64,000 nucleotides of DNA from an uncultured Candidatus Rokubacteria bacterium. Lineage in GTDB: Bacteria; Methylomirabilota; Methylomirabilia; Rokubacteriales; CSP1-6. Below are positions 15,043 through 58,080 of this stretch, one piece after another. Numbering within the stretch: position 1 is the stretch's first letter; each line of letters opens with the position of its first letter. The notes below the pieces were generated by a model. That model saw only the letters and a list, made by a program, of their open reading frames with translations. It was not told the origin of the DNA and searched no databases. The stretch is from positions 32,001 through 96,000 of the forward strand of contig CAVWFS010000020.1 of NCBI GenBank assembly GCA_963754315.1, read 5' to 3'. The position numbers and the translations under genes are program-made.

Positions 15043-15067
15043 TCCTCGGCGGCGTGAGTCAGGTATC

Positions 15068-17089: not shown

Positions 17090-17097
17090 GCTCGGTG

Positions 17098-17930: not shown

Positions 17931-17939
17931 GGTCGTGCC

Positions 17940-19313
17940 TCACACTGCCGGGGAGCGCGCCGGAGTCAGCTCTTCGCGCTCCGGCAGGGCGACCGGACGC
18001 CCAGCGAGGAAGAAGAAGTCCCAGAGGTACAGCGCGACACCGGCGGTGAAGAGCGCCCCGGTGGCGACGAGCATCAGAAAGTGCACCTGAAGCTTGAGCT
18101 GGGTCTCCAGATACCCGATGCTGAGGATCCGCTCCAGGTACGTCTGGGTGATCCCCGCGGCGGCGAAAGCCATCGTCATGCCGAACATACCAGCGAGTTG
18201 GAGCCAGAAGGCCCAGAACCCGGCCGTCGTCTCGCGTGAGTCCTCGCTCCGACCGGTGAGTCCAGGCATGGCATACGTGATCATGCCGAGCACGATCATC
18301 ACGTACGCCCCGAAGAAAGCCATGTGTCCGTGCATCGGCGTGATGAGCGTGCCATGGGTCCACTTGTTGACCGCCGGCCAGGTGTGCGCGAGGCCGAGGA
18401 GGCCAGCGCCGAGGGCCGAGAAGATCGCGCTCCCGATGGTCCAGTGCAGGGCCATGCCTGTTCGGATGGCTGAAACCCGAGCGGCGGATCGCGTAGTACG
18501 CGTACATCGCCATGCCCAGGAACACGAGCGGCTCCAGCGCGCTGAAGAAGCCGCCGATGGGCAGCCAGTAGCGCGGCACCCCGATCCAGTAGTAATGATG
18601 GGCCGTGCCGAGGATGCCGGAGATGAATGTGAGACCGACGATCACGTACAGCCACTTCTCGAGCACCTCGCGATCGACGCCCGAGAGCCGGATCAGCAGG
18701 TAGGCCAGCAGGGCGCCCTGGATCATCTCCCAGACGCCCTCCACCCAGAGGTGCACCGTCCACCACCGGTAGAACACGCTCACCGTGTAGTTGTCGAACT
18801 CGAAGAGCGCGGGGAGGTAGAGGAGCGCGGAGCAGGCGAGACCCGCGACAAGGACGCCCTCGGTGGTGGTCAGCCGCCCGCCGGCGCGGATGGTCATGCC
18901 GATGTTGTAGAGGAACATCAGCATCACCACCACGATGACGATCTTCAGCGGGAATGGCTGCTCGAGTAGCTTGTTGCCGGCGAGATCCAGCGGAAGACGT
19001 AGCCGACGACGGCGGTAACGCCCATCGCTGTCCAGATTCCGAGCTGGACGTAGGCGAGCCGGACGCTGTAGAGCTCGACGCGCGATTCCTCGGGCACGAG
19101 ATAGTAGGTCGCACCCATGAATCCCGTCAGGAGCCAGACCAAGAGCAAGTTCGTGTGGATGGCCTTGGTCACGTCGAAGGGAAGGACGTGGATCAGCGGG
19201 TCGGGGCCCAGGTACTTCACGGCGGCCGAGAGCCCAAAGACCATCTGGAGGCCGAAGAGGAGCAACGCGACCATGAAGTAGGGATAGGCGACGCGCTGGG
19301 ATCGATACCTCAT
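17940..19313 (-). CDS. norB: Cytochrome c-dependent nitric oxide reductase large subunit (frameshifts near 18985 and 18462)
   Basis: [42 protein letters not shown]...[10 protein letters not shown]: all six His ligands and the FeB Glu. Confidence 0.95.
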
Positions 19314-19326
19314 GACGAAAATCCTT

Positions 19327-20146
19327 TCACCGGAGAGTCAAGAGGTAGGCGACGATGTGATCCACTTGTTCCGGCTTCAGCGTCTGCCCGTAGTCCGGCG
19401 GCATCGGCGACCGGCCGCCGGCGGCATAGGTCGGGCCCGTGAGCACGTGGGCGTTCGGGTCGAGGATCGACTCGCGGATGTATCCGGCCGCGTCCTTGGC
19501 GGCGCCGCGGTAGTCGCGGGCTCGCGATGCGGGCCGTCGCGACGGCGGGAATCCCCGCCATGGTGGGGCCGACGATGTTGACCCCGGGCGCGATCGAGTG
19601 GCACGCGGCGCACCCGGGCGGCGTCGCGCTGAACGCGGCCCGGCCGAGCTCCACCGGGTCTTGCGAGGCGGCCTGGGGCGGCGGAGCGCTCCAGCACCGC
19701 GCCCGGCACCGCGCTGCCCCTGACAAGGATCGGCCGGGGCGGCCGAGCCCTGGGTGTTGATGCGGCTCACCCACGACAGGAAGGCGATCAGATGGTCGAT
19801 CTCTGGGTCGCTCAGGTTCGAGGTTCGGCATCAGCCGGCCGTCCCGCTCCTCGGAGTAGAACTTCGATGGATCCTTCAAGAACTCCCGCAGATACGGCGC
19901 GCCCCGCTGCTTGGTGATCTGCGTGAGATCCGGGGCGTAGTACGCGCCCTCGCCCAACAAGGTATGGCAGTTGATGCAGTTGCGCCGGTGCCAGACATTC
20001 TTACCCGCCACGACACTCTCGTCGATGGCAGACGCGTTCGTCAGCTTGGGGAACTGGCGGTGGCTGTCGATCGTGAGCACCGTGAAGATCAGCGCGCTGA
20101 GCAGCGTGCTGATGAAGAAAAAGAGCCGCGCGCCGCGCTTGGTCAC
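19327..20146 (-). CDS. norC: Nitric oxide reductase cytochrome c subunit with a second C-terminal cytochrome c domain (frameshifts near 19818, 19745, 19520)
   Basis: N-terminal TM; CINCHTLLGEGAYYAPDL...MPNL; then CAACH...GPTMAG...YIRESILDPNAH...MP...IVAYLLTL. Confidence 0.88.
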
Positions 20147-21285: not shown

Positions 21286-22266
21286 ATGAGACGGCGCAAG
21301 TTCATTGCACTTCTAGGCAGCTCCGCCGTCGCCCGGCCGTGTCTGGCGCGCGCGCAACAGGCTCGGATGCCGGTGATCGGTATCCTCAACAGTCAGACCC
21401 GGGATACAGAGAGCGAACGACTCTCGGCCCTGCACCAGGGGTTGAGAGAAACCGGCCTCGCCGAGGGCCGAAACGTGGCGATCGAGTACCGCTTTGCCGA
21501 CGGTCATAACGACCGCCTGCCGGCGCTCGCGGCCGAGTTGGTCCGGCGTCAGGTCGCTGTCATCGTGGCGAATACAACTCCTCCGGCGCTCGCGGCGCAG
21601 GCTGCGACCGCGACCATCCCGATCGTCTTCGTCACCGGCGCCGACCCGGTCGCGGTGGGACTGGTCGCCAGCCTCAGTCGGCCGGGCGCCAACGTCACTG
21701 GCGTGACCTTCCTGGTACAACAATTGGTAGCGAAGCGGCTGGAGTTGTTGTGCGACCTGGTGCCGAGAACCGCGCCGATCGGCATGCTGGCGGATCAGCA
21801 CAACCCGAATGCGGAGAGCGACGTCAAAAACGCGCTGGCGGCGGCAGCCGCGCTCGGGCGGATCTTGCATGTCGTAAAGGTCGCGGCTCCGGGCGACATC
21901 GACTCCGCCTTCGCCACCCTGGTCCAACAGCGGGTCGCAGCGGTGTTCCTCGCACCACACGCGAATTTCCGCATTTGGCGCCAGCAGCTCCTCGGCCTGG
22001 CGGCGCGCCATGCCATGCCAACGAGCTTCTCGAGCAGCGATTTCGTTGCCGCAGGCGCTCTGATGAGCTACGGGCCCGATCAGCTGGACTCCTATCGCGA
22101 GGCCGGCATCTATACGGGGCGGATTCTCAACGGCGAAAAGCCGGCGGGGCTGCCGGTCATGCAGTCGACCAAGTTCGAATTCGTGATCAACCTCAAGACC
22201 GCAAAAGCACTTGGCCTCACGATCCCGCCGAAAATGCTCTTGGCCGCCACCAAGCTGATTGAATGA
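21286..22266 (+). CDS. ABC-type substrate-binding protein (ABC_sub_bind family), orphan
   Basis: MRRRKFIALLG signal; EGRNVAIEYR, TIPIVF...DPV...GLVASLSRPGANVTG, GALMSYGP, FEFVINLKTAKALGLTIP. Confidence 0.9.
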   Translation: MRRRKFIALLGSSAVARPCLARAQQARMPVIGILNSQTRDTESERLSALHQGLRETGLAEGRNVAIEYRFADGHNDRLPALAAELVRRQVAVIVANTTPPALAAQAATATIPIVFVTGADPVAVGLVASLSRPGANVTGVTFLVQQLVAKRLELLCDLVPRTAPIGMLADQHNPNAESDVKNALAAAAALGRILHVVKVAAPGDIDSAFATLVQQRVAAVFLAPHANFRIWRQQLLGLAARHAMPTSFSSSDFVAAGALMSYGPDQLDSYREAGIYTGRILNGEKPAGLPVMQSTKFEFVINLKTAKALGLTIPPKMLLAATKLIE

Positions 22267-22297: not shown

Positions 22298-23271
22298 TCA
22301 CGTATGCACGCGAGCGCGCTGCGCGCGGTAGCTTGCGAAGCTCGCCTCGAGCCCGGCCTGCCAAGCGGCCAGCCGCGCCTCCGGTGCCGCGACCAGCGAC
22401 CCCGTCTCGAGACCACTCGACAGCGCGCCGACAAGCCCTCGCGAGGCGAGCGGATCGTAGCTCACCGCCGCGTCGCCGATCGCGATCCAGCCCGGGCCGA
22501 AGCAGCGCTCGAGGATCGTCGAATCCGCGGGGCGCACCACCGGCGCGCGCTCGACGCGGTACCCTTCGACGAGCCGGCCCAGGTGGCGGGTCGCGCGCAG
22601 CCGCGACTCCCAGGCGTGCACGTCGAGCCCGGACACGGTGACGAAGCCTGCGACGCGGCGCCGTTCCGGCAAGCGGCAGCCGTACCACCAGCCCAATGAC
22701 GTCGTCTCGACGGTCAGCGTCGCGTCGACGTCGTCCGCGCGATCGGTCACGAGCCAGCCGACGAGGGCGACCTGTCGGTCGAAGCGCAGGCGCTTGACGC
22801 CGAGGAGGCGCGCGACCGCGCCGCGCCGGCCGGTGGCGTCGACCAGCCAGTCGCAGGTCTCCTCGCCGTCGGAGAGCCGGAGGCGCCAGCCATGCGGCAC
22901 CGTACTCTCACGAGCGAGGCCGGTCAGCCGTGCCGGCACGCGCAAGAGCGCTCCGGCGGCGACGGCCGCCTGGCGCAACGTCTCCCCAAAGCGCGCGCGG
23001 TCGAGTAGCCAGCCGTGGCCGAACGGATGCGAGAGGAAGTCCTGATCCTGCAGCTCGACCGAGTGCCACGCCGCGCGTACGCCGACGCAGTCAAGTTGCC
23101 CCGGCAAGCGCTTCAGGCCGAGTCGCGAGAGAAGCGGGCGCGCCGCGGGGGGAGCTGCTCGCCGACGCCATCGAGCCCGTCGCCGACGAGGACGACATCC
23201 CGGCCGGCGCGACAGAGCGCGATCGCCGCCGCGCATCCGGCGGGCCCGGAGCCGACCACCGCGACACGCAT
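22298..23271 (-). CDS. LodB/GoxB-like FAD-dependent flavoprotein for CTQ maturation (frameshift near 23148)
   Basis: VVGSGPAG, GEQLPP, GWLLDRARF, VDATGR, GWWY, IGDAAVSYDPLASRG; TGATG overlap with the LodA-like gene. Confidence 0.85.
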
Positions 23272-25176
23272 CACGTGGGAAATTCGTTGTCCGTTTCGAC
23301 CTTGAAGAGCGGCGGGAAAGCCGGGTCGCCCGGTCCAGGCTGCTCGGTGACGACGCCGAGCCGGTACCAGTTGTCGACCATCTGCTGGAGGGTGTCCGTC
23401 GTATCCGGGCGGTCGATGTTGCGGAAGAACTGCGCCCGGCCGAAGAACGCCTCGCGCCGCTCTTCGAGCGAACGGGACGTGTCGAGCACGAGTTCGTAGC
23501 GCTGCTCGGGCATCACGTGGTTGGGCACGCGCGCCGCCCAGAAGGTCGGCAGATACGGATCCACGGGGGTGTCGCCGTACTGGTAGCCGGAGCGGCAACT
23601 CGCGGTGTCGGTCTGCCACGGCACCGCCATCCAGCGCGTGACGCCGCCGGGGACCGAGCCGGCGAGCGGCCCGTCGGCGGACAGCGCGATGGCCGGGGTC
23701 AAGACCTCGCCGTGGTTGGGCTCAGACCCCTGGCGGTGGAGGAGCCGGAACGGCGAGGCGTACATGGAGGCGACGCGCATCGGCCAGGTCGCCTCGCAGC
23801 CCGGATGGAAGGCGTCGCCGAGGCAGGCCTCGAGCGCGGCGCGATCGAGCGCCGCCGGCTGAATCTCGATCGGCAGATCCTCGACCTGCGACGAGATCGG
23901 TCCGGCCACGCCGGGAACGAAGTCGCCCGCCGCCCAGCTCTGGAGCGCCGCATACTGGAACGGCTGGACAGCGAGGTAGCTCCGCGGGCTGACCGGCGGG
24001 AGGGTGATCGCGTCGCCATAGAGCGGCGGCAACAGGTCGACCGCGCTCTCGAGCGTCGCGTAGTCGGGGTTGCGGAACCTGGCGAACAGCGCCTGGCGGA
24101 AGGCCGCGTTGGCCGGCGACGGATCGGCAAGCCGGAGCAGGTACTCCGGCGACAGGAACTGTTCGGGCGAATCCCAGCCGTAGCGGTTCAGGACACCTTG
24201 ATTGACCCACTGCAGATCGGCCAGGCGCTCGAAGAGCGGAAAAATGTCGGCGAGGAAGCTCACCTCGGCCGGCGGCGTGACCCAGCCGAGGTCGAGCATG
24301 GTCTGATAGATCACGGTGTAGAGCGTGCCGAAGTCGGTCGCGAGCGCCGGCGCGTAGTTCGGCGGCGCGACCACCACCCAGGCCGGATCGACCGGCAGCG
24401 AGACGCCGCCGAGACGGACGCGCGCGGTCACCGGGCCGTCGGACGTGTCGTCGGTCCAGCCGTCGTTGTTGGCGAAGGTCGTGAGCGACGAGCGTTGCGG
24501 GAGAGAACGAGCGGCCCCGGCCGCCGAGGACGAGCAGGCGCCCTTGCTCGTCGGTGCGGAGCTCGCCCAGGTACACGGACTCGCCCAGGAAGGCGCCGGT
24601 GTCGAAGGGCACGGCGCTGCGATGGCGTCCCGACACTCGCCGGGGCCCGGGGTCGATCATCAGCGCGTTGCGGTCCGCACCCTGGTAGGCGGCGTTCCGC
24701 CGCGAGGTGGGCTCGGCCTCGGGGATGTCGAGCGCGGTCTCGAACTCGTACCAGGCCGCCTTCTGGTTGGCGAGGTGCACGGTCCACTGAATGGTCGCGT
24801 CGTGCGCGGTGAGCTCGCGCACGACCCGCCCGTTAGTGTCGAGTCCGAAGATGCGGAAGCGCGCCGCTTGACGTTTCATCGCTCCGCTCGCGTCCTTGTA
24901 GCCGCCGGGCGCAATCGGCAGTCCGCCCGGAATCTCGGGTCCGAAGTAGTACTCGTCGGGACTGTTGCCCACACGCGCGATGCCGATCGCCGGATGGATC
25001 GCGGCGCGGACGATGCGGCCGCGGGAGCCGCGAGACGGGCGGCCTGCGCTCTCGCCCCAGGCCCGATCGGAGCTGAGCATCGCCAGCAGCGCCGAGCTCG
25101 CGCCCGCTTTCAGCAGATCGCGGCGCGACAGCAGCCGGTCGAGGGTCGAGGACCGCCGGTCAACTACGTCGCCCAT
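23271..25176 (-). CDS. LodA/GoxA-family CTQ-dependent amino acid oxidase with Tat signal (frameshift near 24497)
   Basis: SRRDLLK; IHPAIGIARVGNS, KRQAARFRI, WTVHLANQKAAWY, LGELRTD-GRLLVLGG-G, NNDGWTDDTSDGPV, CLGDAFHPGCE, MAVPWQTDTASC, FWAARVPNHV. Confidence 0.92.
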
Positions 25177-33600: not shown

Positions 33601-36600
33601 ATGAGGTGTCCCGCCTGCCAGCACGACAATCCTCCAGAGTCGACGATCTGCCTCGGTTGCGGCGAGCGCCTCACCCAGGGCTGTCCGGGATGCGGGGCCC
33701 TTCCGCCGGCCGACTCGCGGTTCTGCCACCGGTGCGGGACGCCCCTGCACCCGCTCCAGGGGCCTCGGCACCACGGCGGCGAGAGGATCTTCACCGCCGA
33801 GAGCTCGCGGGAAGGCGAGCGCAAGCACATCACGGTGCTCTTCGCGGACCTCAAGGGGTCGCTGGACCTGCTCGCCGACGTTGATCCCGAGGACGCGCGG
33901 AGGATCCTGGACCCGGTCCTCGAGCGGATGATGGACGCCGTGCATCGCTACGAGGGCACCGTGAACCAGGTGATGGGGGATGGCATCATGGCGCTCTTCG
34001 GGGCGCCGGTCGCTCACGAGGACCATGCGATCCGGGCATGTCATGCGGCGCTGCGAATGCAGGAGGCCTTGACACGGCACAGCGACGAAGTGCGGCGTGC
34101 TCACGATGTGCCCCTCCTGATCCGGGTCGGCCTGCACTCGGGCGAGGTTGTGGTCAGGTCGATCGAAAGCGACCTTCATATGGACTACACCGCCGTCGGG
34201 CAGACGACGCACATCGCCGCGCGGATGGAGCAACTGGCGCGGCCGGGTTCGGTGCTGATGACGGGCGAGACGCTCAAGCTCGCGGAAGGCTACGTGCAGG
34301 TGAAGCCGGTCGGGCAGGTGCCCGTCAAGGGGCTCCAGACGCCCATCAGCGTGTACGAGCTGACCGGCATCGACATGCCGCGATCCCGGCTGGAGGCGGT
34401 CGCCGCACGAGGTCTCACCCGCTTCGTCGGCCGCAGTGCGGAGCTCGAGCTGCTTCGGAACGCTCGGGACCGGGTCGCCGCGGGCCACGGCCAGGGCGTC
34501 GGGGTGGTGGGCGAGGCCGGCGTCGGAAAAACGCGACTCTGCTACGAGTTCATGCGCCAGTCCTCGACGGAAGGCTGGCTCGTTCTCGCGGCGAGCGCGA
34601 CATCGTACGGCAAGAGCACTCCATACCTGCCCGTCACCGATCTCCTGCGCACGTACTTCAACATCGACGACCGGGACGAGGTGGGCCGCATCCGCGAGAA
34701 GGTGACGGCCAAAGTCGTCGCGCTCGACGCGGAGCTCGAACCCCTGTTGCCCGCGTTCCTGACACTCCTCGACGTGCCGGTGGCCGGCCCCGATCCTGCC
34801 TGGACGCGGCTCGACCCTTCCCACCGTCGCGGGTGGATCCTCGGGGCCCTGAGACGCCTCTTCTTCAGCGAGGCGCGGGAACGACCGGTCTGTCTGGTCA
34901 TGGAGAACCTGCACTGGATGGATCTGGAGACGCTCGCCCTTCTCGAAAGCCTCGTGGAGGCGGTACCTGGCCATCGCCTTCTCCTGCTCGTCAACTACCG
35001 CCCGGAGTATCGCCACCCGTGGGGGTCGGTGGCCCATTTCATGGACCTGAGGATCGATCCGCTGCCGCCCGTGCTCGCCGCCGAGTTACTCCAGGCGCTC
35101 GTCGGGGCCGACCCGACTCTCCGACCACTCACGCAACTCCTCGTCGACCGGACGGACGGCAACCCGTTCTTCCTCGAGGAGATGGTGCGCAGCCTCGTCG
35201 AGACGGAAGCGCTCGTGGGCGCGCCGGGCGCGTACCGCCTCGTTCGGTCCGTGAGCACCGGTCAGGTGCCGGAGACCGTCAAGGCGGTCCTCGCGTCGCG
35301 CATCGACCGGCTGCCGCTCGAAGAGGAGCGGCTCTTGCAATGCGCTGCCGTGATCGGACGACGTGTCGACGCCGGCCTTCTGGGAGCGATCGCCGACCTC
35401 CCCGGTGACCAGCTTCGTGACGGGCTCGCGCACCTGCAGGCGGCCTCCTTCCTGTACGAGTCGTGCCGCTTCCCCGAGCAGGAATACGCCTTCAAGCATT
35501 CGCTCACCCACGACGTCGCGTATGGCAGCCTCCTGCACGCCCGGCAGCGCGCCCTGCACGCCCGGATCGTCGCCGCCATCGAGGCGCTCTACCCGGATCG
35601 GCTGGCCGAGCAGACGACGCGGCTGGCCCACCATGCCTTCCGCGGCGAGCTGTGGGACAAGTCCGTCCAGTACCTCCTGCGCGCCGGGCGGCGAGCCCTC
35701 TTCACGTCGGCCACCCGCGAGGCCGTCGAGAGCTTCGACCGGGCCCTGCTCGCGCTCCGTCGCGTGCCGCAGACTCCAGACACGCTCCGCATCGCCCTCG
35801 CCCTTCGCCTGAACCTCCGCGACGCTCTGTGGTCTCTCGGCGAGGTCGACAAGATCCGCGACGAGCTCGTCGAGGCGGAGGCGATCGCGCACCAGCTCGA
35901 TGACGTGCACGCCCTGGCGACGGTGGCCTGCTATCGGTGCCATTATCTGTGGGTCGTCGGAGAGCTGGACGCGGCCCTCGACGCGAGTGAACGGGCGCTG
36001 GCAATGGCCATCACGGTAGGCAACGCGGTGCTTCTGGCGGAGACGAAGCTGTACCGGGGCGTGGTGTTCCTCGCGCAGGGCGACAGCCAGCGCGCCGCCG
36101 ACCTCTTGTCGGACACGCTCCCGGAGCTGGATCGCCCCCCGGAAGGAAGACGGAGCACGGCCAACCGCGCCATCGCCATCCGCCTGCTCGTGCTCTCCTT
36201 CCTCGCCCGTTCGCTGGCCGAGCTCGGGCGCTTCGAGGAGGGCATTGCGTATGGCGAGCAGGCGCTACGCATCGCCGAGCCGAGCACGGCCTTTGGCCTG
36301 GCCACCGCCCTGGCGGGGCTGGGCGCGCTCCATGTGCGGAAGGCCGACGCGCCCGCGGCGATCCCCCTCCTCGAACGCGGCCTCGAGGTGTGCCGGACTT
36401 ACAACGTCAACAACTGGTTTCCCACCATCGCGGCATTGCTCGGGGCCGCCTATGCGCTCACCGGGCGCATCGAGGAGAGCGTGGCGCTGCTGGAGCAGGC
36501 TGTCGACCACGCTCGTGGCATGGGGATCGTGGCCACGCAGTCGCTATGGCGCACGTATCTCGCCGACGCCCACGCCAGGGCCGGGCGCTTCGTGGAGGCG

Positions 36601-36921
36601 CTCGCCGAAGCTCGTCGAGCACTGAGTGAGACTCGGACGCGGCTGGAGCACGGCAACGAGGCGTGGGCGCTGCACGCGTTGGCCGGGATCCTGGCCGGCA
36701 TCGAGTCGCCAGATTTGCGCCAGGCGCAGAATCACTTCCTCGAGGCCCTCCAGCTCGCCGAGCAGCGTGGGATGCGACCGCTCGTCGTCCGGTGCTGCCT
36801 CGGCCTCGCCCGGCTCCACGAGCGTACCGGCGACGCGACCGCGGCATTGGGCTACCGCGAGCGCGCCGGTCGTCTGGCCGACGAGCTCGGGATGTCCCTC
36901 GCCTCGCTCGAGCCCGCGTGA
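33601..36921 (+). CDS. Double zinc ribbon - class III nucleotidyl cyclase - STAND AAA ATPase - TPR protein
   Basis: Four CxxC; LFADLKGS, MGDGIMALFGAP, RVGLHSG; Walker A GEAGVGKT, MENLHW, GNPFFLEE, YAFKHSL; helical repeats. Confidence 0.93.
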   Translation: MRCPACQHDNPPESTICLGCGERLTQGCPGCGALPPADSRFCHRCGTPLHPLQGPRHHGGERIFTAESSREGERKHITVLFADLKGSLDLLADVDPEDARRILDPVLERMMDAVHRYEGTVNQVMGDGIMALFGAPVAHEDHAIRACHAALRMQEALTRHSDEVRRAHDVPLLIRVGLHSGEVVVRSIESDLHMDYTAVGQTTHIAARMEQLARPGSVLMTGETLKLAEGYVQVKPVGQVPVKGLQTPISVYELTGIDMPRSRLEAVAARGLTRFVGRSAELELLRNARDRVAAGHGQGVGVVGEAGVGKTRLCYEFMRQSSTEGWLVLAASATSYGKSTPYLPVTDLLRTYFNIDDRDEVGRIREKVTAKVVALDAELEPLLPAFLTLLDVPVAGPDPAWTRLDPSHRRGWILGALRRLFFSEARERPVCLVMENLHWMDLETLALLESLVEAVPGHRLLLLVNYRPEYRHPWGSVAHFMDLRIDPLPPVLAAELLQALVGADPTLRPLTQLLVDRTDGNPFFLEEMVRSLVETEALVGAPGAYRLVRSVSTGQVPETVKAVLASRIDRLPLEEERLLQCAAVIGRRVDAGLLGAIADLPGDQLRDGLAHLQAASFLYESCRFPEQEYAFKHSLTHDVAYGSLLHARQRALHARIVAAIEALYPDRLAEQTTRLAHHAFRGELWDKSVQYLLRAGRRALFTSATREAVESFDRALLALRRVPQTPDTLRIALALRLNLRDALWSLGEVDKIRDELVEAEAIAHQLDDVHALATVACYRCHYLWVVGELDAALDASERALAMAITVGNAVLLAETKLYRGVVFLAQGDSQRAADLLSDTLPELDRPPEGRRSTANRAIAIRLLVLSFLARSLAELGRFEEGIAYGEQALRIAEPSTAFGLATALAGLGALHVRKADAPAAIPLLERGLEVCRTYNVNNWFPTIAALLGAAYALTGRIEESVALLEQAVDHARGMGIVATQSLWRTYLADAHARAGRFVEALAEARRALSETRTRLEHGNEAWALHALAGILAGIESPDLRQAQNHFLEALQLAEQRGMRPLVVRCCLGLARLHERTGDATAALGYRERAGRLADELGMSLASLEPA

Positions 36922-37464: not shown

Positions 37465-38463
37465 ATGATCGGCCGGCGCGCGTTCGTGCACGGGTCGGCG
37501 GCCGTCGGCATGACACGGCTGCTCGGCGTGAGCTCGACCGAAGCCGAGCCGCCGCTCGAGACGACGACGCTCCGGATCGGCGATAGCTCGAGCCTCTGCG
37601 CGGCCCCGCAGTTCGTGGCAGAGGACCTGCTACGAGGTGAGGGGTTCACGAATGTGAAGTACGTCAAGTCGGCCGATATGGGAGCCGCGATGTGGCATGA
37701 CCTGGCTACCGGCCAGATCCACTTCACCACGGCGTTCAGTGGGCCGCTTCTCCTGCGCATCGACGCGCAGGATCCCATCGTCCTCCTGGCGGGAATCCAC
37801 GTAGGCTGCTTCGAGTTGTTCGGGACCCAGCGCATCCGCGCGGTCCGGGACCTCAAGGGCAAGACCGTCGCGATCTCGGCGTTGCAGAGCGCCGGCCACA
37901 TCTTCGTCTCGGCGATGGCGGCCCACGTCGGTCTCGACCCCCGGCGGGACATCGCGTGGGCCGTCCATTCCCCGGAGGACGGCAAACGCCTCCTGGCGGA
38001 GGGGAAGGTGGATGCCTACATCGCCTTTCCCCCCGACCCCCAGGAGCTTCGCTCGGCCGGGATCGGCCATGTTGTTGTCAATAGCGCGATGGACAAGCCC
38101 TGGTCGCAGTACTTCTGCTGCACGATGGTTGGCAACCGTGAGTTCGTCCGGAAGCACCCAGTCGCGACGAAGCGCGTCCTGCGGGCCTTCCTCAAGGCGA
38201 CGGACCTCTGTGCGAGTGAGCCCGAGCGGGTGGCGCGACTCCTCGTCGACAAGGGGTACGCGAAGCGGCACGACTACGCGCTCCAGGCCCTGCGCGACGT
38301 GCCGTGGAACCGGTGGCGTGACTACGACCCCGAGGACACCGTTCGCTTCTACGCCCTGCGGCTCCACGAGGCCGAGATGATCAAGTCGAGTCCGCAGAAG
38401 ATCATCGCGCAGGGCACGGACTGGCGCTTCCTCAACGAGCTGAAGAAAGAGTTGAAGGGATGA
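37465..38463 (+). CDS. NMT1/TauA-like substrate-binding protein, array copy 1
   Basis: Tat-like GRRAF; DLKGKTVA, GLDP, WSQYFCC, QGTDWRFLNELKKELKG. Confidence 0.9.
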   Translation: MIGRRAFVHGSAAVGMTRLLGVSSTEAEPPLETTTLRIGDSSSLCAAPQFVAEDLLRGEGFTNVKYVKSADMGAAMWHDLATGQIHFTTAFSGPLLLRIDAQDPIVLLAGIHVGCFELFGTQRIRAVRDLKGKTVAISALQSAGHIFVSAMAAHVGLDPRRDIAWAVHSPEDGKRLLAEGKVDAYIAFPPDPQELRSAGIGHVVVNSAMDKPWSQYFCCTMVGNREFVRKHPVATKRVLRAFLKATDLCASEPERVARLLVDKGYAKRHDYALQALRDVPWNRWRDYDPEDTVRFYALRLHEAEMIKSSPQKIIAQGTDWRFLNELKKELKG

Positions 38464-39552
38464 TCACCAGGCGCGACCTCCTGCGCGGTGTCACGGGAAC
38501 GGTAGGGCTGCTGGGATGGCCACCCGGACACGCCGCTGGGGAGCCGCCGCCGGAGACGACAAGGATCCGCGTGGTACGGAGCCCCGCGATTTGTATCTCC
38601 CCAGCTCTACGTAGCGGAAGAGCTGTTCCGGCTCGAGGGGTTCACCGACGTCGAGTACGTTGAGTTCAAGACGGGCAACCTCTTCACGCAGGCAGTCGGG
38701 CCGGCCAGGTGGACCTGGCTCTGAACTTCATCGGGCCCCTCGTGGTCAGTGTGGACGAGCGCGCGCCCGTCGTGATCCTGGCCGGGGTCCACGCCGGCTG
38801 CTTCGAGCTGTTTGGATCTGAGCGCGTCCGCGCGATCCGGGACCTGAAGGGGAAGACGGTCGCCATTCCAGGGAAGGGGGAGCCACAACACGTCTTCCTG
38901 GCCAGCATGCTCTCCTACGTGGGCATCGATCCTCGCGCGGACATCACCTGGGTCACTCACCCCTTCGCGGAGTCGGCGCGTCTCCTTGCGGAGGGCAAGA
39001 TCGATGGGTATCTTGGCATCGCCCCCGAACCCCAGGAGCTGCGAGCACGGAAGATCGGCCGGGTAGTCGTCGACAGTGCATCGGACCGGCCTTGGTCTCA
39101 GTACTTTTGCTGCATGGCATACGCGAACCGCGACTTCGTCCGCCGGTACCCCGCGGCGACGAGGCGGGCCCTGCGCGCCGTCCTCAAGGCCGCCGACCTC
39201 TGCGCGGCAGACCCCGCGGTAGCGGCGCAGAAGGTCGTGACCAAGGGCTACACGCGTGAGTACGACTATGCGTTCGAGCTGATCAAGAAGCTTCCGTACA
39301 ACCTGTGGCGGGCCCAGAACCCTGAGGATTCGCTGCGCTTCTACGCCCTCCGACTCCACGAGGCCGGGATGGTCAAGAGCAGCCCGCAGAAGATCATCGC
39401 GCAGGGCACGGACTGGCGCTTCCTCAACGAGCTGAAGAAGGAGTTGAAGGGATGATCACCAGGCGCGACCTCCTGCGCGGTGTCACGGGAACGGTAGGGT
39501 TGCTCGGATGGTCACCCGGACACGTCTCTGGGGAGCCGCCACCGGAGACGAC
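38392..39552 (+). repeat. 169-bp direct repeat at gene junctions (38392-38560 and 39384-39552)
   Basis: 7 mismatches in 169 nt by manual alignment; spans the C-terminus of one SBP and the signal peptide of the next. Confidence 0.9.
38460..39455 (+). CDS. NMT1/TauA-like substrate-binding protein, array copy 2 (compensating frameshifts near 38603 and 38700)
   Basis: TRRDLL signal; same motifs; intervening frame reads YVAEELFRLEGFTDVEY. Confidence 0.85.
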
Positions 39553-40444
39553 GAGACTGAGGCTCTATCAGTCGCCGAGCCTCTGCCCGGCGCCCCAGTA
39601 CATCGTCAGGGAACTCCTGAAGGCCGAGGGCTTCAGCGACATTCAGTACGTCAAGACGCCCGTCGCGGGTATCTCGAAGATTCTGGCATCAGGGGAGGTC
39701 GATGTCTCCCTGCACTTCGTCGCGCCGCTAGTCATCCGGCTGGATGCCGGCGACCCGATCACGATCTTGGGCGGTGTCCACCCTGGCTGTTTCGAGCTGT
39801 TCGCGACGGACCGGGTTCGCGTGATCCGGGATCTCAAGGGGAAGACGATCGCGATCACCGAGCTGGGTCAACCCGCGCACGTCTTCCTCACCAGCATGCT
39901 AGCCCACGTCGGGCTGGATCCTAGCAAGGACGTCACCCTCGTCGAGCATCCCGCCGCGGAGTGCAAGCGCCTGCTCGCGGAGGGGAAGGTTGACGCCTAC
40001 CTCGCCTTTCCGCCGGACACGCAGGAGCTCCGCGCTAGGAAGGTCGGACACGTCGTCGTCAACAGCGCGGTCGACCGGCCGTGGTCGCAGTACTTTTGCT
40101 GCATGGCGACGGGTCATCGGGAGTTCGTTCGCAAACATCCGATCGCGACCAAGCGGGCGCTGCGGGCGATCTTGAAGGCTACCGACGTCTGCGCCCTCGA
40201 GCCTGAGCGGGCCGCGCGGGCTCTCGTCGACGGCGGCTTCACGCCACGCTACGACTATGCGCTCCAAACCATGAAGGAAGTCCCGTACAACAAGTGGCGC
40301 GTCTACGATCCGGAAGACTCGGTCCGCTTCTATACCCTCCGCCTCCGCGAGGCCGGCATGATCAAATCGGCGCCGCAGCGCCTCATCGCGCAGGGTACCG
40401 ACTGGCGCTTCCTGAACGAGTTGAAGAAAGAGCTCAAGGGATGA
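39452..40444 (+). CDS. NMT1/TauA-like substrate-binding protein, array copy 3
   Basis: TRRDLL signal, HPGCFELF, WSQYFCC, identical C-terminus; ATGA overlap. Confidence 0.9.
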   Translation: MITRRDLLRGVTGTVGLLGWSPGHVSGEPPPETTRLRLYQSPSLCPAPQYIVRELLKAEGFSDIQYVKTPVAGISKILASGEVDVSLHFVAPLVIRLDAGDPITILGGVHPGCFELFATDRVRVIRDLKGKTIAITELGQPAHVFLTSMLAHVGLDPSKDVTLVEHPAAECKRLLAEGKVDAYLAFPPDTQELRARKVGHVVVNSAVDRPWSQYFCCMATGHREFVRKHPIATKRALRAILKATDVCALEPERAARALVDGGFTPRYDYALQTMKEVPYNKWRVYDPEDSVRFYTLRLREAGMIKSAPQRLIAQGTDWRFLNELKKELKG

Positions 40445-40539
40445 GACGACGCGAGCTGCCGCGGAGTGCGGGGGCGGCCGCCGCGGCGGCGGCGCTGACC
40501 GGGAGGTCCAGGGAGCTGAAGAAGGAGTTGAAGCGATGA
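40441..40539 (+). pseudogene. Collapsed SBP copy (signal peptide joined to C-terminal tail)
   Basis: 32 aa MRRRELPRSAGAAAAAAALTGRSRELKKELKR; ATGA overlaps at both ends. Confidence 0.8.
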
Positions 40540-41528
40540 TCACCCGGCGCAAGTTCCTGACCGGCCTCACCGCAGCGGGAGGGTTCCCGGTGTCGACGCC
40601 GCGCTCGGCGGCCTCCCAGCCGTCCCCCGAGACGGGCACGATACGGGTGAGCAGCTCCATCGCCATCTGCACGGCCCCTCAGCTCGTGTCCGAAGATCTC
40701 CTGCGGGCCGAGGGCTTCACGGTCGTCCAGCACGGAGCACAGGCGACGATTGGCACGCTGGATGAGGTGGGGGCCGGCAAGGTCGACATCGGGATCAGTT
40801 TCATCGGGCCCACGATCGTCCAGATCGATGGCGGCCAGTCGATCACCGTCCTGGCCGGGGTCCATCCGGGGTGCTTCGAGCTGTTCGGCACCGATCGCGT
40901 GCGCTCGCTCAAGGACCTGAAGGGCAAGAGGATCGCCGTGGTCAGCCTCGGATCGAGCCCGCACATCTTCCTTTCCACCATGCTCGCCCACGTGGGGCTC
41001 GATCCCCGCAACGACGTCGAGTGGATCACCAAGCCGCGGCCGGAGTCGATCGAGCTCCTCCGGGAGGGCAAGGTTGACGCCTACATGGGGTTCCCGCCCG
41101 AGCCCCAGGAGCTGCGCGCCAGGAAGATCGGTCACTCGGTGGTGAACAGCGCGGCTGACCGGCCGTGGTCGCAGTATTTCTGCTGCATGGTCGCGGCCAA
41201 CCGCGACTTCGTGCGGAAGAACCCGGTCGCCACCAAGCGCGCCTTGCGCGCCTTCCTGAAGGCCACGGACATCTGTGCTCTCGAGCCCGAGCGCATCGCC
41301 AGGAGCCTCGTGGAGAAGAAGTTCACCCCGCGGGAGGACTACGCGCTGGCCACCCTCCGCGAGCTCCCCTATGCTCGCTGGCGCGAGTACAACCCCGAGG
41401 ACAGCGTCCGGTTCTACTCGCTCCGCCTGCGCGAGGCGGGCATGATCAAGTCGAGCCCGCAGAAGATCATCAGCCAGGGCACGGACTGGCGGTTCCTGAA
41501 CGAGCTGAAGAAGGAGCTGAAGGGATGA
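40536..41528 (+). CDS. NMT1/TauA-like substrate-binding protein, array copy 4
   Basis: TRRKFL signal, HPGCFELF, WSQYFCC, identical C-terminus. Confidence 0.9.
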   Translation: MITRRKFLTGLTAAGGFPVSTPRSAASQPSPETGTIRVSSSIAICTAPQLVSEDLLRAEGFTVVQHGAQATIGTLDEVGAGKVDIGISFIGPTIVQIDGGQSITVLAGVHPGCFELFGTDRVRSLKDLKGKRIAVVSLGSSPHIFLSTMLAHVGLDPRNDVEWITKPRPESIELLREGKVDAYMGFPPEPQELRARKIGHSVVNSAADRPWSQYFCCMVAANRDFVRKNPVATKRALRAFLKATDICALEPERIARSLVEKKFTPREDYALATLRELPYARWREYNPEDSVRFYSLRLREAGMIKSSPQKIISQGTDWRFLNELKKELKG

Positions 41529-42532
41529 TCGGGCGCCGGCACTTCCTCACGGGATCCGCCGCCGTCGTGACAACGATCGCCGCAGACCGCGGCGGTCTGG
41601 CTGTCGCGGCCGAGCCGCCGCCGGAGACGACACGCGTCAGGTTGGGTGCCGTGCCAAGCATTTGCCTCTCGCCGCAGTATGTCGCCGAGGACCTGCTGCG
41701 TGCCGAGGGGTTCACCGATATCCGGTATCCGCCGGTCAGCGGAGGCGTATCCGGGGCGAAGGAAATGGGCAGCGGCAGCGGGGACGCGGACATCGCCATG
41801 AACTTCGCCGCGCCCCTCGTCGTCGCACTGGACGGGGGCACGCCGATCGTCGTGCTGGCCGGCGTGCACATCGGGTGTTTCGAGCTGATCGCCACGGACC
41901 GCGTCCGGACGATCAAGGACTTGAAGGGAAAGACCGTCGCCGTGTTCGGTCTGGGGTCCGCCCAGCACGTGTTCCTGGCGAGCATGGCATCGCTGGTGGG
42001 TCTTGATCCGCGCAAGGACATCAGCTGGGTGACCCATCCGTCGGCCGAGGCCAAGAGACTCCTCGCCGAGGGCAAGATCGATGCGTTCCTCGGGTTTCCT
42101 CCGGATCCCCAGGACTTGCGCGCCCGGGGGATCGGCCACGTCGTGGTGAATAGTGCCTCCGACCGGCCGTGGTCCCAGTACTTCTGCTGCATGGTGGTGG
42201 CGAACCGGGAATTCGTCGCGCGGCATCCGGTCGCCACCAAGCGCGCCCTGCGCGCGATCCTGAAGGGGGATGAGGTGTGCGCCGTCGATCCGGCTCGCGC
42301 GGCGCGGGCGTACCACGACCGTGGCTTCGACGTGCCCGAGCCCCTCGTCCTACAGGCCTTGAAGGAAGTGCCCTTCGGCCGGTGGCGCGCGTACGACCCG
42401 GCGGATACGCTCCGCTTCTACGCCCTGCGTCTCCGCGAGGCGGGAATGATCAACGGCAGCCCGCAGAGGATCCTGGCGCAGGGCACCGACTGGCGGTTCC
42501 TCAATGAGCTGAAGAAGGAGCTGAAGGGCTGA
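41525..42532 (+). CDS. NMT1/TauA-like substrate-binding protein, array copy 5
   Basis: GRRHFL signal, HIGCFEL, WSQYFCC, identical C-terminus; ATGA overlap fixes the start at 41525. Confidence 0.9.
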   Translation: MIGRRHFLTGSAAVVTTIAADRGGLAVAAEPPPETTRVRLGAVPSICLSPQYVAEDLLRAEGFTDIRYPPVSGGVSGAKEMGSGSGDADIAMNFAAPLVVALDGGTPIVVLAGVHIGCFELIATDRVRTIKDLKGKTVAVFGLGSAQHVFLASMASLVGLDPRKDISWVTHPSAEAKRLLAEGKIDAFLGFPPDPQDLRARGIGHVVVNSASDRPWSQYFCCMVVANREFVARHPVATKRALRAILKGDEVCAVDPARAARAYHDRGFDVPEPLVLQALKEVPFGRWRAYDPADTLRFYALRLREAGMINGSPQRILAQGTDWRFLNELKKELKG

Positions 42533-42552
42533 CACGCTTCGGGCCGCGGGCC

Positions 42553-43135
42553 GTGGCGGGACTCGCCGTCGCCTTCATCCTCTCGGTGGCGATGCCAGAC
42601 TCTCGCGCACCAGCCGGGCCGTGACGCGCGGCTGCCCACGATCGGGGCGGCGCCCACGTTTTCGCTGACGACTGCCGACGGCGGGCGGCTCGCTCTGGCC
42701 GATATGCGCGGCAAGGTCGTTGCGATCACCTTCATCTATGCGACGTGCACCGACACCTGTCCCCTGCTCACGGCGAAGCTGGCCGGGCTCGGCCAGCGGA
42801 TGGGGAAGGATTTCGGCGCGAAGGTGGCGTTTGTCGCCATCACCGTCGATCCCGAGCGCGACACTGCAGACGTCTTGCGGAGCTACGCGCAGGCGCACGG
42901 CGCGAGGGGGGCGGGCTGGGCGTTCCTCACCGGGACACCGGCGGAGATCAAGGACGTAGCCCAGCGCTACGGCGTGTTTGCGCGGAAGACAGATCGCGGC
43001 GACGTCGACCACACGTTCCTCACCTCGCTCGTGGACCGTGCGGGCGCGCTGCGAGTCCAGTACATGGGCGTCCGGTTCAATCCTGACGAGATGCTGCGCG
43101 ATCTCCGCTCGCTCCTCCGCGAAGGCGGCGGGTGA
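42553..43135 (+). CDS. SCO1/SenC family copper-binding protein (frameshift near 42598 after the signal peptide)
   Basis: APTFSLT...GKVVAITFIYATCTDTCP (CxxxC), ITVDPERDT, WAFLTG, VDHT (His ligand); signal MAGLAVAFILSVAMP in the adjacent frame. Confidence 0.88.
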
Positions 43136-44649
43136 TGCGCGCGCTCCTGCGCGCCCTCCCGCGCCTCGTGGCGAGGATCCCGGCCGCGGTGCACACCAAG
43201 CTCCTGGTCGCGTTCCTCACCATCGTCGGCCTGCTGATCGCGCTCGGCGCGGTCGGTCTCGAGGTTCTCGGCGAGGTGAATCGCCGGGCGGAAGACCTCG
43301 TGAAGCTGCAGCGCAAGATCGCCGCCTACCGCCAGCTGCAACACGACACGACCGGCCAGCTCTACAGTGTCGCCGCGGCGCTGCTCGTCCCCGAGGATCG
43401 GAGCCTCGACGCCATCCTCCGCCAGCTCAACCAGTTCGGCTACGACCTGGACCGCCTGCAGTTCGTCGCCCGGGACGAGGTCGAGCTGCTCGGCCGCCTG
43501 CGGGCCGACTACGACGAGTTCATCCGGGTCGTCACGCGGGTCGTGGAGCTGATCCGGACGGGCCGGGCCGACGAAGGGCGGGAGCTGCAGCTGGCGCAGG
43601 CGAACCCACTGGCTGACCGGCTGGAGCGGCTCACGAACCAGCTCGTCAACCAGGCGGAAGCCGACATGGTGGCCAGCGTGGACACGAGCCACGACGCGTT
43701 CGTGCGCGCGCGGTGGATCGTCATCGGGTTCGCGGTAGGGGCGATCGGCCTGGCCCTCGTGCTCGGGTTCGCAATCTCGTGGTCGCTGGTCGGAGCCGTC
43801 AAGGCAATGGACGTGGGCCTCGCACAGATTGCCTCCGGGGACTTCTCCCGACGCGTCGACATTCCGAATCGCGACGAGCTCGGCGCGCTCGCGGCCAACC
43901 TGAACCGGATGAACGACGAGCTGGGGCGGCTGTACCGCGAGCTGGAGGCGGCCAGCCGCCACAAGTCGGAGTTCCTCGCCAACATGTCGCACGAGCTGCG
44001 GACGCCGCTCAACGCGATCATCGGCTTCTCGGAGGCTCTGGACGACCGCATGTTCGGGGAGCTGAACGAGAAGCAGGCCGAGTACATCCGCGTCGTCCTG
44101 AGCTCCGGACGCCACCTGCTCTCACTGATCAACGATATCCTGGACCTCTCCAAGGTCGAGGCGGGACGGATGGAGCTGGAGCTCGGGACGTTCAATCTCC
44201 GCATGGCCCTCGAGAACGCGCTCACCTTGATGCGTGAACGCGCCATGCGCCACGGGCTCGCGTTCGAGCTGACGGTCGACGAGACGCTCGAGGACGTCGT
44301 CGCCGACGAGCGAAAGCTCAAGCAGGTGCTCCTGAATCTGCTGTCCAACGCCGTGAAGTTCACGCCCGAGGGCGGCCGGATCGACGTGCGTGCGCTGCCC
44401 GCGAACGGCACCGTCGAGGTGTCCGTCACCGACACCGGGGTCGGGATCGCCCTCGAGGACCAGGCGGCGATCTTCGAGGAGTTCCGCCAGGTGGGCCACG
44501 CCGCGCGCAAGCGCGAGGGCACCGGTCTCGGCCTCGCGCTGGCGCGAAAGTTCGTCGAGCTGCATGGCGGCCGCCTGTGGGTGAAGAGCGAGCTGGGTCG
44601 CGGATCGACGTTCACGTTCACGCTTCCCGCGAGCCCCCATGCCGGGTGA
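43132..44649 (+). CDS. Membrane sensor histidine kinase (2 TM, helical periplasmic domain, HAMP, HisKA, HATPase)
   Basis: IASGDF...NRDELGALA HAMP; FLANMSHELRTPLN; NLLSNAVKFT, DTGVGI, FEEF, GTGLGL; GTGA overlap with SCO. Confidence 0.95.
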   Translation: MMRALLRALPRLVARIPAAVHTKLLVAFLTIVGLLIALGAVGLEVLGEVNRRAEDLVKLQRKIAAYRQLQHDTTGQLYSVAAALLVPEDRSLDAILRQLNQFGYDLDRLQFVARDEVELLGRLRADYDEFIRVVTRVVELIRTGRADEGRELQLAQANPLADRLERLTNQLVNQAEADMVASVDTSHDAFVRARWIVIGFAVGAIGLALVLGFAISWSLVGAVKAMDVGLAQIASGDFSRRVDIPNRDELGALAANLNRMNDELGRLYRELEAASRHKSEFLANMSHELRTPLNAIIGFSEALDDRMFGELNEKQAEYIRVVLSSGRHLLSLINDILDLSKVEAGRMELELGTFNLRMALENALTLMRERAMRHGLAFELTVDETLEDVVADERKLKQVLLNLLSNAVKFTPEGGRIDVRALPANGTVEVSVTDTGVGIALEDQAAIFEEFRQVGHAARKREGTGLGLALARKFVELHGGRLWVKSELGRGSTFTFTLPASPHAG

Positions 44650-45010
44650 GCTGATCCTTCTCGTCGAGGACAACGACCCCAGCCGGATGCTCGTCCGCGA
44701 CGTGCTCCGGGCGAGCGGCTACAGCGTCGTCGAAGCGGAGAACGCGGAGGACGGTCTGCTCATGGCCGCGGAGCAGCGGCCGGCCCTGATCCTCATGGAC
44801 ATCCAGCTCCCGGGTATGAACGGGATCGAGGCCCTGCAGCGGCTGCGCGCCGATCCCGCCACTCGCGCGATCCCGGTCATCGCCGTGACGGCCTCCGCGA
44901 TGACGCTGGACCGCCGCCAGATCATGGCCGCCGGCTTCGACGGCTACCAGGCGAAGCCGATCAGCTTGAAGGGTTTCCTCCAGGCCGTGCGGGAGATGCT
45001 GCCGTCGTGA
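44639..45010 (+). CDS. Single-domain response regulator (DivK/CheY-like)
   Basis: LVEDN, LMDIQLPGMNG, AVTA, AKPI; overlaps the kinase. Confidence 0.93.
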   Translation: MPGELILLVEDNDPSRMLVRDVLRASGYSVVEAENAEDGLLMAAEQRPALILMDIQLPGMNGIEALQRLRADPATRAIPVIAVTASAMTLDRRQIMAAGFDGYQAKPISLKGFLQAVREMLPS

Positions 45011-45076: not shown

Positions 45077-45928
45077 CTACCTGCGCAACCCAGCGAACAG
45101 GTCGCTCTCCAGACCCGAGGCGCCCGACTGTCCTCGCGCGAGCTGAAAGCTCTCCCGGCCAAAGATTCGGTAGAAGAGCGCCGGTGGCATCTTCGCGAAG
45201 AAGACCTCCGGTCCCATCTGGCTGGCGTGCGCCATGAGCGCCTGGCGCTTGCGCTCGACCTGCGGGGAGACGTCGACCTCCGTGGTGATCAGCTCGTCGG
45301 GCGTGCCGATATCCGGTTCGCGCGCCTCGCCGCCCTCGAACGGCGCCTCGATTCCCGCCTCGCGCAGGAGTCGGGCGAAATTCTTGATCTTGGAGCGGGC
45401 CACCGCGGTGTAGTACAGCTTTGCCGGCCGCCAGGGCTCACCCGCCTCGGGCCAGCGCGCCGGATCGCTGGCCGCCTCGTACGCGGACACGGTAATCTGG
45501 TGCGCCTTGATGTGGTCCGGGTGACCGTAGAAGCCGTTTTCGTCGTAGGTCACCAGCACCTGGGGCCGCTCCCGCCGGACGAGGGCCACCAATCTGGCCG
45601 TCGCCTCGTCCAATGAAGCCTGGCAGAAGCTCGCCGGGTGCTCGTTGTCGGGTGTTCCCATCATCCCTGAATCGCGATAGCCCAGCAGGTGGAGCCTCCC
45701 GACGCGCAGGATGTCGCAGGCCTGCCGTAGCTCCCTCCGCCGAACTTCGACCAGCGTTTCGGGCGTCGCCAGTCCCGGATCCGCTATCTCGCCGACCTCG
45801 CCGCCGGTGCAGGTGACCAGCACCGTCCGGAGGCCCTCCTCCGCGTAGCGGGCCAACACGCCGCCAGTGCTGATTGACTCATCGTCCGGGTGCGCATGGA
45901 CTGCCATCAACGTCAGGGCTTCCGTCAT
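45077..45928 (-). CDS. PIG-L family deacetylase (MshB/Mca-like)
   Basis: HAHPDDE, TGGEVG, YRDSGM, GFYGHPDH, AHASQ. Confidence 0.9.
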   Translation of the reverse strand: MTEALTLMAVHAHPDDESISTGGVLARYAEEGLRTVLVTCTGGEVGEIADPGLATPETLVEVRRRELRQACDILRVGRLHLLGYRDSGMMGTPDNEHPASFCQASLDEATARLVALVRRERPQVLVTYDENGFYGHPDHIKAHQITVSAYEAASDPARWPEAGEPWRPAKLYYTAVARSKIKNFARLLREAGIEAPFEGGEAREPDIGTPDELITTEVDVSPQVERKRQALMAHASQMGPEVFFAKMPPALFYRIFGRESFQLARGQSGASGLESDLFAGLRR

Positions 45929-57209: not shown

Positions 57210-58080
57210 CTACCGCTGACCCCACGCGGGAGTCGGGAACCGGGGCTTCGAGGTGGCGAATCGATCGGGCCAGAGCACCACCTTCACGCCGTCTTGCCAC
57301 TGCACCAGGAGACCCTTGTTGGCGATCTGATATCCGCGCTCGTCGACGGCGTAATCGCCGAAGATCGTCGTGGTCTTGAGCTTCAGCAGCCGGTCGCGAA
57401 CCTGGTCAGAGTCCACGCTGCCTGCCCGTCGTGCGGCCTCCGTGAACAGCTGGCAACCAGCGTAGGCGCCGGCGGCGTGCAAGCTCGGAGGCTTGTGGAA
57501 CTCCTTCTGATAGGCATCGACGAATTCCTTAACCCCGGGGTACGGGACGCTCGGTTCCCAGGGGGACGCACCATACGCGAACTCGGCCGCCCTGCCGAGC
57601 GCCTGCTGGAACTCGACGACCGCTGTCGTGGTCCCGAACATCTTAACGTTGACATCGCGCTCCTTCATCTGACGTGCGAAGACGATGAAGTCGGTGAGGT
57701 TCGCGCTCGCGATACCCAACACGTCGGGGTTGGCCGCCTTGACCTTCGCCAGGATCGCGGAGAAGTCCTGGTTGCCCTTCGCGTACTCCTCGTGGAGGAC
57801 GACATCCAGGCCGTTCTTCCTGGCGAGATCGATGGTGCCCTTGGCGGCGGATCTGGGGAAGATCGTGTTCTCGCTGACGAGGCCGACAGTCTTGAGCCCG
57901 TGGCGCGCCGCGAGGTCGATCAGCCCCGCCAGGAAGAGTTCCGAGGGGCCAAGTTGCATGACGATGTAGCGCCGCCCCTTCTCCCATATGGAGGACGTCG
58001 CGGCCAGCGGCGCGAGCATGACCTTGCGGTGCTTCTCGACGACGGGCGCCACTGCCTCGGTGAGCGGCGAACCGTAGAGC
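57210..58080 (-). pseudogene. 5'-truncated branched-chain amino acid (LivJ/K-type) substrate-binding protein
   Basis: Homology starts at LYGSPLTEAVAPV; DFSAILAKVKAANPD, TIFG-Y-VDERG, VQWQDG...LWP; no signal peptide or first ~100 aa. Confidence 0.75.

Follow-up and report, generated by a model that had tools for sequence, protein, structure and literature searches.

The 64,000-nucleotide stretch of uncultured Candidatus Rokubacteria DNA analyzed here (the window, part of contig C20 in a 6.5 Mb genome that is 95.6% complete) carries at positions 37465-45010 a run of eight genes, all on the forward strand: five NMT1-family genes, a SCO gene, a histidine kinase gene, and a lone receiver gene. We conclude that this cassette probably encodes a binding-protein-dependent kinase system with several co-receptors, in which the five exported binding proteins would serve as interchangeable co-receptors of the neighboring kinase, and not as transporter subunits. 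This conclusion is carried by the layout of the cassette, its conservation, the co-occurrence of its genes, and the absence of a cognate permease nearby, and is consistent with predicted folds and a predicted complex. The features are as follows (aa, amino acids).

37465..38463, + strand: binding protein 1, 332 aa, with an NMT1 fold, a signal of twin-arginine-like type, and the conserved Cys/His core
38437..38514, + strand: 78-nt junction repeat (gene end plus start of the next gene), 96% identical to 39429-39506 and 78% to 40513-40590
38460..39455, + strand: binding protein 2, with compensating one-base indels at 38603 and 38697
39452..40444, + strand: binding protein 3, 330 aa, folded and modeled with the sensor
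40445..40535, + strand: 91-nt spacer, the last part of which is a remnant copy of a binding-protein 3′ end
40536..41528, + strand: binding protein 4, 330 aa, with an orthologue at 94% identity
41525..42532, + strand: binding protein 5, 335 aa, with an orthologue at 91% identity
42529..43135, + strand: SCO1/SenC protein with CxxxC, a distal His, and a hydrophobic signal for export at its N-terminus; extra base at 42597
43132..44649, + strand: histidine kinase, comprising a membrane helix, a periplasmic four-helix bundle (43261-43701), a second membrane helix, HAMP, HisKA, and HATPase
44639..45010, + strand: single-domain receiver, 123 aa, without an output domain

The first-pass annotation, made from the letters alone, described five paralogous NMT1-like binding proteins followed by SCO, a HAMP kinase, and a receiver on one strand, and this is borne out by the open reading frames (ORFs) and by Pfam, which finds NMT1/NMT1_2 in all five binding proteins, SCO1-SenC in the SCO protein, Response_reg in the receiver, and HAMP, HisKA, and HATPase_c in the kinase together with 4HB_MCP_1 below its cut-off. 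The same annotation had all genes joined by overlaps or a gap of about 20 nt, which is correct for most joins (overlaps of 4-11 nt, or a spacing of 20 nt if SCO begins at GTG 42553 instead of CTG 42529) but not between genes 3 and 4, where the gap is 91 nt and holds the 3′-end remnant. Binding proteins 1, 2, 4, and 5 are 60-64% identical to protein 3, whose residue numbering is used throughout; protein 1 has an orthologue in another genome at 91% identity, and no copy of the family was found elsewhere in this genome outside the array.

Three one-base indels are present in the assembly, at 38603 and 38697 in gene 2 and at 42597 in SCO. They are missing from short-read contigs of near-identical strains (38603 in 2 of 4 runs, 38697 and 42597 in 3 of 4 each, the remaining runs having zero depth there), and the extra base at 42597 is also absent from four related SCO genes, so that all three are likely assembly errors and gene 2 and SCO are treated as intact; the open frame of gene 2 retains the motifs. 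A pseudogene array was considered and ruled out by the indel-free near-identical strains and by orthologues 89-94% identical to four of the paralogues, and a recent foreign island is without support (G+C 67.3%, vs 67.5% and 67.9% on the flanks). A promoter scan gave no sites; terminator-like matches fall mostly within a conserved coding motif, with one located just 3′ of the receiver gene.

The cassette recurs widely. A scan of contigs with the binding protein gave 459 related stretches, the best 80 of which resolve into 73 loci from Rokubacteria, Binatia, Mesorhizobium, Rhizobium, Sinorhizobium, Microvirga, betaproteobacteria, and others; the four genera named here all have cultured members that carry it. 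Specifically, i) the kinase sensor domain is present in 48 of the 73 loci, SCO in 49, and both in 46, many of the 25 sensor-less loci being short contigs, and the sensor is found in 33 of the 40 loci that have at least 3 kb on both sides; ii) in the reverse direction, among the best 80 of 537 metagenome loci obtained by searching with the sensor first, SCO lies directly upstream in 67 of the 72 with room for it, and a binding protein is on the contig in 50 of the 52 with at least 1.1 kb upstream; iii) among 151 genomes of the phylum, searches that scored just part of the candidates per genome found the sensor in 25 genomes, once as a weak match, and the binding protein in 28, with 23 genomes having the two together and 121 having neither; and iv) among 201 genomes of a rhizobial order, searched with the same limit on candidates, both genes were found in the same 2, one of which was the search center. 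The homologues thus travel with one specific kinase sensor domain, both by locus and by genome.

No TauC-type permease travels with them. A profile search for such permeases, which in a control recovered every one of 6 left-out TauC genes as well as 3 NrtB-type genes, found none beside the 73 binding-protein loci, none beside the 80 sensor loci, and none in 20 additional regions surrounding stray copies or truncated cassettes. Nor is there a same-strand permease within 3 kb in any of the 73 loci. Some other, non-TauC permease occurs in 7 of the 73. Permeases beside L005/L171 and L173 were examined as candidates and rejected, being part of sugar, dipeptide, and branched-chain transporters with their own binding proteins. 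Within the window, a search for PF00528-type permeases and ATP-binding cassette (ABC) ATPases found neither, as the first-pass annotation had stated for the 64 kb, and the nearest on the contig is about 50 kb from the array; homologues elsewhere are likewise not flanked by TauBC/SsuBC-type genes. Membrane subunits of tripartite ATP-independent periplasmic (TRAP) or tripartite tricarboxylate (TTT) type were absent from the Pfam-scanned ORFs, which are not all those of the window, and no dedicated profile search was made for them. Two binding proteins of other families in the window, at 21367-22266 (+, ABC_sub_bind) and 57210-58052 (-, Peripla_BP_6), are also without a permease there, so that a missing permease is by itself nothing out of the ordinary for this genome; the conserved link to the sensor is what stands out.

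That the five proteins are orphan transport proteins of the NitT/TauT type, serving permeases encoded elsewhere, with the two-component pair unrelated or merely regulating them, is highly improbable in our judgment. Their Pfam family and predicted fold are those of NrtA, SsuA, and TauA, and databases label members of the family as transporter subunits; NMT1 families match above and Phosphonate-bd below the Pfam cut-off, no Peripla_BP match was found by Pfam in the binding proteins, and the model of protein 3 (predicted local distance difference test, pLDDT, 96) superposes on NrtA with Z 28.6 and root-mean-square deviation (rmsd) 3.1 over 300 aligned residues. The genome moreover has six TauC-type permeases elsewhere as well as the permease-less binding proteins just mentioned. 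Identity to the transport proteins is however only 12-20%, and scores against the SsuA/TauA families of NCBIfam lie far below cut-off (at best 87 bits vs 163.5, four proteins scanned); each of the six TauC genes lies within about 5 kb of NMT1 genes of its own; no TauC accompanies any of the 73, 80, and 20 fetched stretches; binding-protein presence tracks the sensor domain; the receiver lacks a DNA-binding domain; and the complex predicted between binding protein and kinase passed its controls.

For that complex, binding protein 3 modeled with a dimer of the sensor scored 0.74, vs 0.00 for the best of three controls; runs agree in at least 90% of contacts, with partner pLDDT at least 87. In calibration, 116 of 157 solved complexes attained the mark that it reached, as did 2 of 215 mismatched pairs. 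Conservation is also higher in the interface columns than elsewhere (0.78 vs 0.68 and 0.88 vs 0.75). The predicted dock on the kinase is formed by both chains of the periplasmic four-helix bundle, and that on the binding protein by residues from both of its halves (R292, F293, L296, D289, P308, D208-P210, Q213, and G154). The core contact residues are common to the window's four intact paralogues, and no comparable complex was found by sequence among solved structures. The shared docking surface proposed in the first-pass annotation is thus supported by one predicted complex and by a surface common to the paralogues, one of the five having been modeled. We suggest that a ligand held in the variable cleft would change the relation of the lobes, shift the bundle and HAMP, and so alter phosphorylation of the receiver.

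The cleft itself behaves differently from the dock. Paralogues from the same locus are 58% identical overall, 68% at the interface, and 24% in the cleft loops, whereas orthologues are 87%, 90%, and 81% identical, respectively; at a constant rate the orthologue cleft would be expected at 67%, vs the 81% observed, and control loops fit the constant rate. This pattern favors type-specific ligands, though it gives only modest support because the loops were picked after their variability had been seen. The expandable repertoire of ligand-specific receptors envisaged at first pass therefore holds as far as cleft loops that differ by paralogue type; ligand specificity would be a reading of those sequence differences.

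Members of the family appear to be exported: of 117 that are full length, 114 carry a twin-arginine motif, and distant members have N-termini that, judged by eye, resemble those of lipoproteins. Beneath the variable loops lies a nearly invariant core. In 203 members of at least 270 residues, C45, H110, C113, C216, and C217 are near-invariant (C113 in 203 of 203, C216 and C217 in 202 of 203, C45 in all 177 rows that have a residue at that position), and C247 alone is lost in 6 of the 203; among representatives at 50% identity, counted over rows that have any residue there, C45 is retained in 94 of 102, C113 in 118 of 127, C216 in 133 of 140, and C217 in 136 of 140. Profile alignment to NrtA-like proteins (probability 98%), and from there to solved chains, places C217 at NrtA K269 and CmpA E271 (numbering offsets inferred), C45 within the first cleft loop, and C113 one residue ahead of NrtA Q155; K269 and E271 are named pocket residues, and a cleft calcium ion is required for ligand binding by CmpA (PMC8786288, PMC13249358). 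The Gln155 that a review ascribes to CmpA matches NrtA numbering in the chain sequences, and an equation of H143 with CmpA Q198 was dropped because the alignment is one residue off. Since the cysteines align at or beside these pocket residues, they likely cluster on the floor of the cleft, where CmpA keeps its calcium, and a soft-metal or disulfide site at C45, H110, C113, C216, and C217, served by SCO, is plausible.

This core invites two other explanations. In the first, the proteins dock as we propose, but the signal lies in the condition of their common Cys/His site (copper load, thiol oxidation, or a thiol-reactive compound), which SCO would set or reset; the paralogues would tune range or access and would not each bind a separate organic ligand. 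The near-invariance of the four Cys and the His even in 50%-identity representatives, the retention in SCO of CxxxC and His, which are its copper ligands (PMC7558416), and the precedent of AioX-AioS, in which a binding protein dedicated to signaling senses an inorganic species for a kinase (PMC8050422), all fit such a sensor. We nevertheless regard it as unlikely: the cleft loops diverge sharply from one paralogue type to another but are retained within a type, and arrays that reach a dozen or more called copies or fragments seem beyond what tuning needs. In the second, which we consider quite improbable, these are periplasmic enzymes of binding-protein fold, like THI5, DszB, and MqnA/D, that attack a substrate through a cysteine, and the kinase reads the state of the enzyme or its product. 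Among PDB entries, THI5 matches best by sequence, with a cysteine run that aligns with C216-C217, and DszB has the same fold (Z 18.3, rmsd 4.0, 282 aligned) and a reactive Cys27 (PMC12168087); but identity to THI5 is 15-18%, transport proteins score higher by fold, equivalence of C45 and DszB Cys27 was not obtained by sequence alignment, and export signals recur while biosynthetic neighbors do not.

The SCO protein retains CxxxC and the distal His, with both cysteines and the histidine unchanged across 28 rows, and in many members its N-terminus looks by eye like a cleavable signal followed by His. A close form of SCO occurs in 21 genomes of the phylum sample and adjoins the sensor every time; SCO is thus tied to the cassette, though not thereby to any target. 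It could load copper into the Cys/His site or maintain the redox state of that site; maturation of the binding proteins by SCO, as first proposed, is plausible from gene order and conserved cysteines.

The kinase has all of its H, N, G1, and G2 boxes. Its periplasmic part, 56-95% identical across loci, is predicted to fold as a four-helix bundle resembling those of chemoreceptors and LytS, and by sequence has no match among solved structures better than E 0.09; downstream of the sensor the kinase is variable, with 0-2 GAF domains and extra receivers. Cyclic nucleotide is the likely output, because a receiver-cyclase gene lies in the cassette of 23 of the 73 fetched loci; this genome has four receiver-cyclase genes elsewhere, 61-74% identical.

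We wish to set out what weighs against the co-receptor interpretation. At the level of gene content, the sensor is absent within 10 kb in 7 of the 40 well-flanked binding-protein loci; metagenome sensor loci L086 and L114, with 2.6 and 6.1 kb of upstream sequence, lack SCO and binding protein alike, and L010 and L020 have binding proteins and sensor but no SCO; 5 of the 28 phylum genomes with the binding protein, all fragmented and 82-95% complete, gave no sensor match; the counted loci and genomes include kin, so that the counts are not independent; and the six TauC-type permeases could potentially be used in trans. SCO may also, or instead, serve respiratory oxidases, since it is the genome's only strong SCO. 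At the level of models, the complex was computed for protein 3 alone of the five; the calibration counts for its mark are only rough here because our job, unlike the calibration, used alignments of our own and a three-chain input; the conservation of the interface is not independent of the score because alignment-based models may favor conserved patches; the cleft positions include loops that are hard to align; and H143 and C113 each align one residue away from known pocket residues.

Known systems provide partial parallels. One is XylFII-LytS of Clostridium beijerinckii (PDB 5XSJ/5XSD), likewise a dedicated binding protein on a four-helix-bundle kinase sensor; XylFII docks sideways on the helices of a single LytS bundle (PMC9769921, PMC8050422), and our sensor model superposes on LytS with Z 12.9 and rmsd 2.1 over 119 aligned residues, a level common among helical bundles. 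XylFII is however a Peripla_BP_4 sugar-binding protein, one per kinase, without SCO, cysteine core, or array, and the two sensors are 8% identical. TorT-TorS, LuxP-LuxQ, and ChvE-VirA are also binding-protein-dependent histidine kinases (PMC8050422), but with other binding-protein families and HBM-like or dCache-like sensor folds; the cassette kinase scores far below the NCBIfam cut-offs for TorS and LuxQ, with matches limited to the kinase core. The binding-protein fold of AioX is related (Z 15.6), but AioX belongs to the Phosphonate-bd family, is single copy, and works with an sCache-like sensor in an arsenite oxidase regulon. AioX reportedly uses a cysteine. In E. coli, GBP, RBP, and PotD feed one four-helix-bundle receptor, Trg (PMC8050422), a chemoreceptor that borrows transporter subunits of separate operons, whereas the cassette paralogues are co-encoded with the kinase and no transporter. 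Cluster F proteins (NrtA, CmpA, SsuA, TauA) share the fold but are encoded with permease and ATPase and lack the Cys/His core; CmpA binds its anion through a cleft-held metal at the position where the cassette family has C217. Finally, PrrC/SenC beside PrrBA/RegBA likewise places a SCO gene next to a two-component pair, but without binding proteins. PrrC is reportedly a copper protein that may also act as a thiol-disulfide oxidoreductase; RegB has several membrane helices and is not known to have a periplasmic bundle, and the RegB family is not among the best 25 NCBIfam rows. We conclude that the cassette works like XylFII-LytS, TorT-TorS, and AioX-AioS but belongs to none of them. The main text of the review PMC8050422 makes no mention of NMT1, Sco, or copper, and a literature search, which did not reach most subscription papers or rhizobial papers giving only locus tags, found no paper on this cassette.

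The array appears to grow. Arrays elsewhere have up to a dozen or more called copies or fragments, and the junction repeat, at 96% identity, together with a tree of 137 rows (quick method) on which arrays are mixed, suggests that genes are gained and shuffled by recombination; the repeat is likely a trace of that process. Taken furthest, the cassette would be an array of exported metalloreceptors that grows and shuffles, each bearing under a variable cleft a site that SCO loads with copper or another soft metal, all docking on one conserved kinase sensor with cyclic-nucleotide output, a picture that we hold only tentatively and as doubtful in its entirety. If it were true, soil bacteria and rhizobia could acquire new senses through one added gene, and maturation of receptors would be a new role for SCO. 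To our knowledge the known binding-protein kinases use a single partner, and a co-encoded array sharing one dock would be a modular means of widening a kinase's sensing range. The family is large (scoring at 90% identity covered at least 8000 clusters, and 973 representatives reached E 1e-30 or better), and annotation as nitrate, sulfonate, or taurine transporter subunits is likely wrong for thousands of these proteins. The predicted interface pinpoints residues open to mutation, and the cultured rhizobia carry the cassette.

Other genes adjoin the cassette in some loci. In Binatia and Rokubacteria it is accompanied by ABC_sub_bind (PF04392) genes, in many cases more than one, and by a second kinase of dCache-GAF type (L010, L018, L020, L023, L037, L043, L051, L055, L062, and L066), possibly as a second co-receptor family, and protein P0098 is a fusion of NMT1 and ABC_sub_bind domains. 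A secreted double-PAP2 (haloperoxidase-like) gene is found near or between binding-protein genes in 6 loci: L012 (1223-2605), L013, L016, L033, L036, and L040. In the window, a zinc-ribbon/class III cyclase/AAA/TPR gene at 33601-36921 (+) precedes the array by 544 nt on the same strand, and similar genes are near the cassette in a few loci, for example L013; on the other side, an MshB/Mca-like deacetylase gene at 45077-45928 (-), not a recurring neighbor, converges on the receiver gene.

Farther from the array, the window contains a TIR-domain gene followed by a gene for a long WD40 protein at 7950-11149 (-), possibly a defense or signaling pair; a nitric-oxide-reductase-like cluster at 13495-20146, with a COX1-like fragment, a VWA protein, a NorQ-type AAA ATPase, and cytochrome c; and, at 22298-24431 (-), a gene with a LodA C-terminal domain adjoining one for a tryptophan-halogenase-like flavoprotein, which we take to be a pairing of the kind seen in LodA/GoxA-type oxidases.

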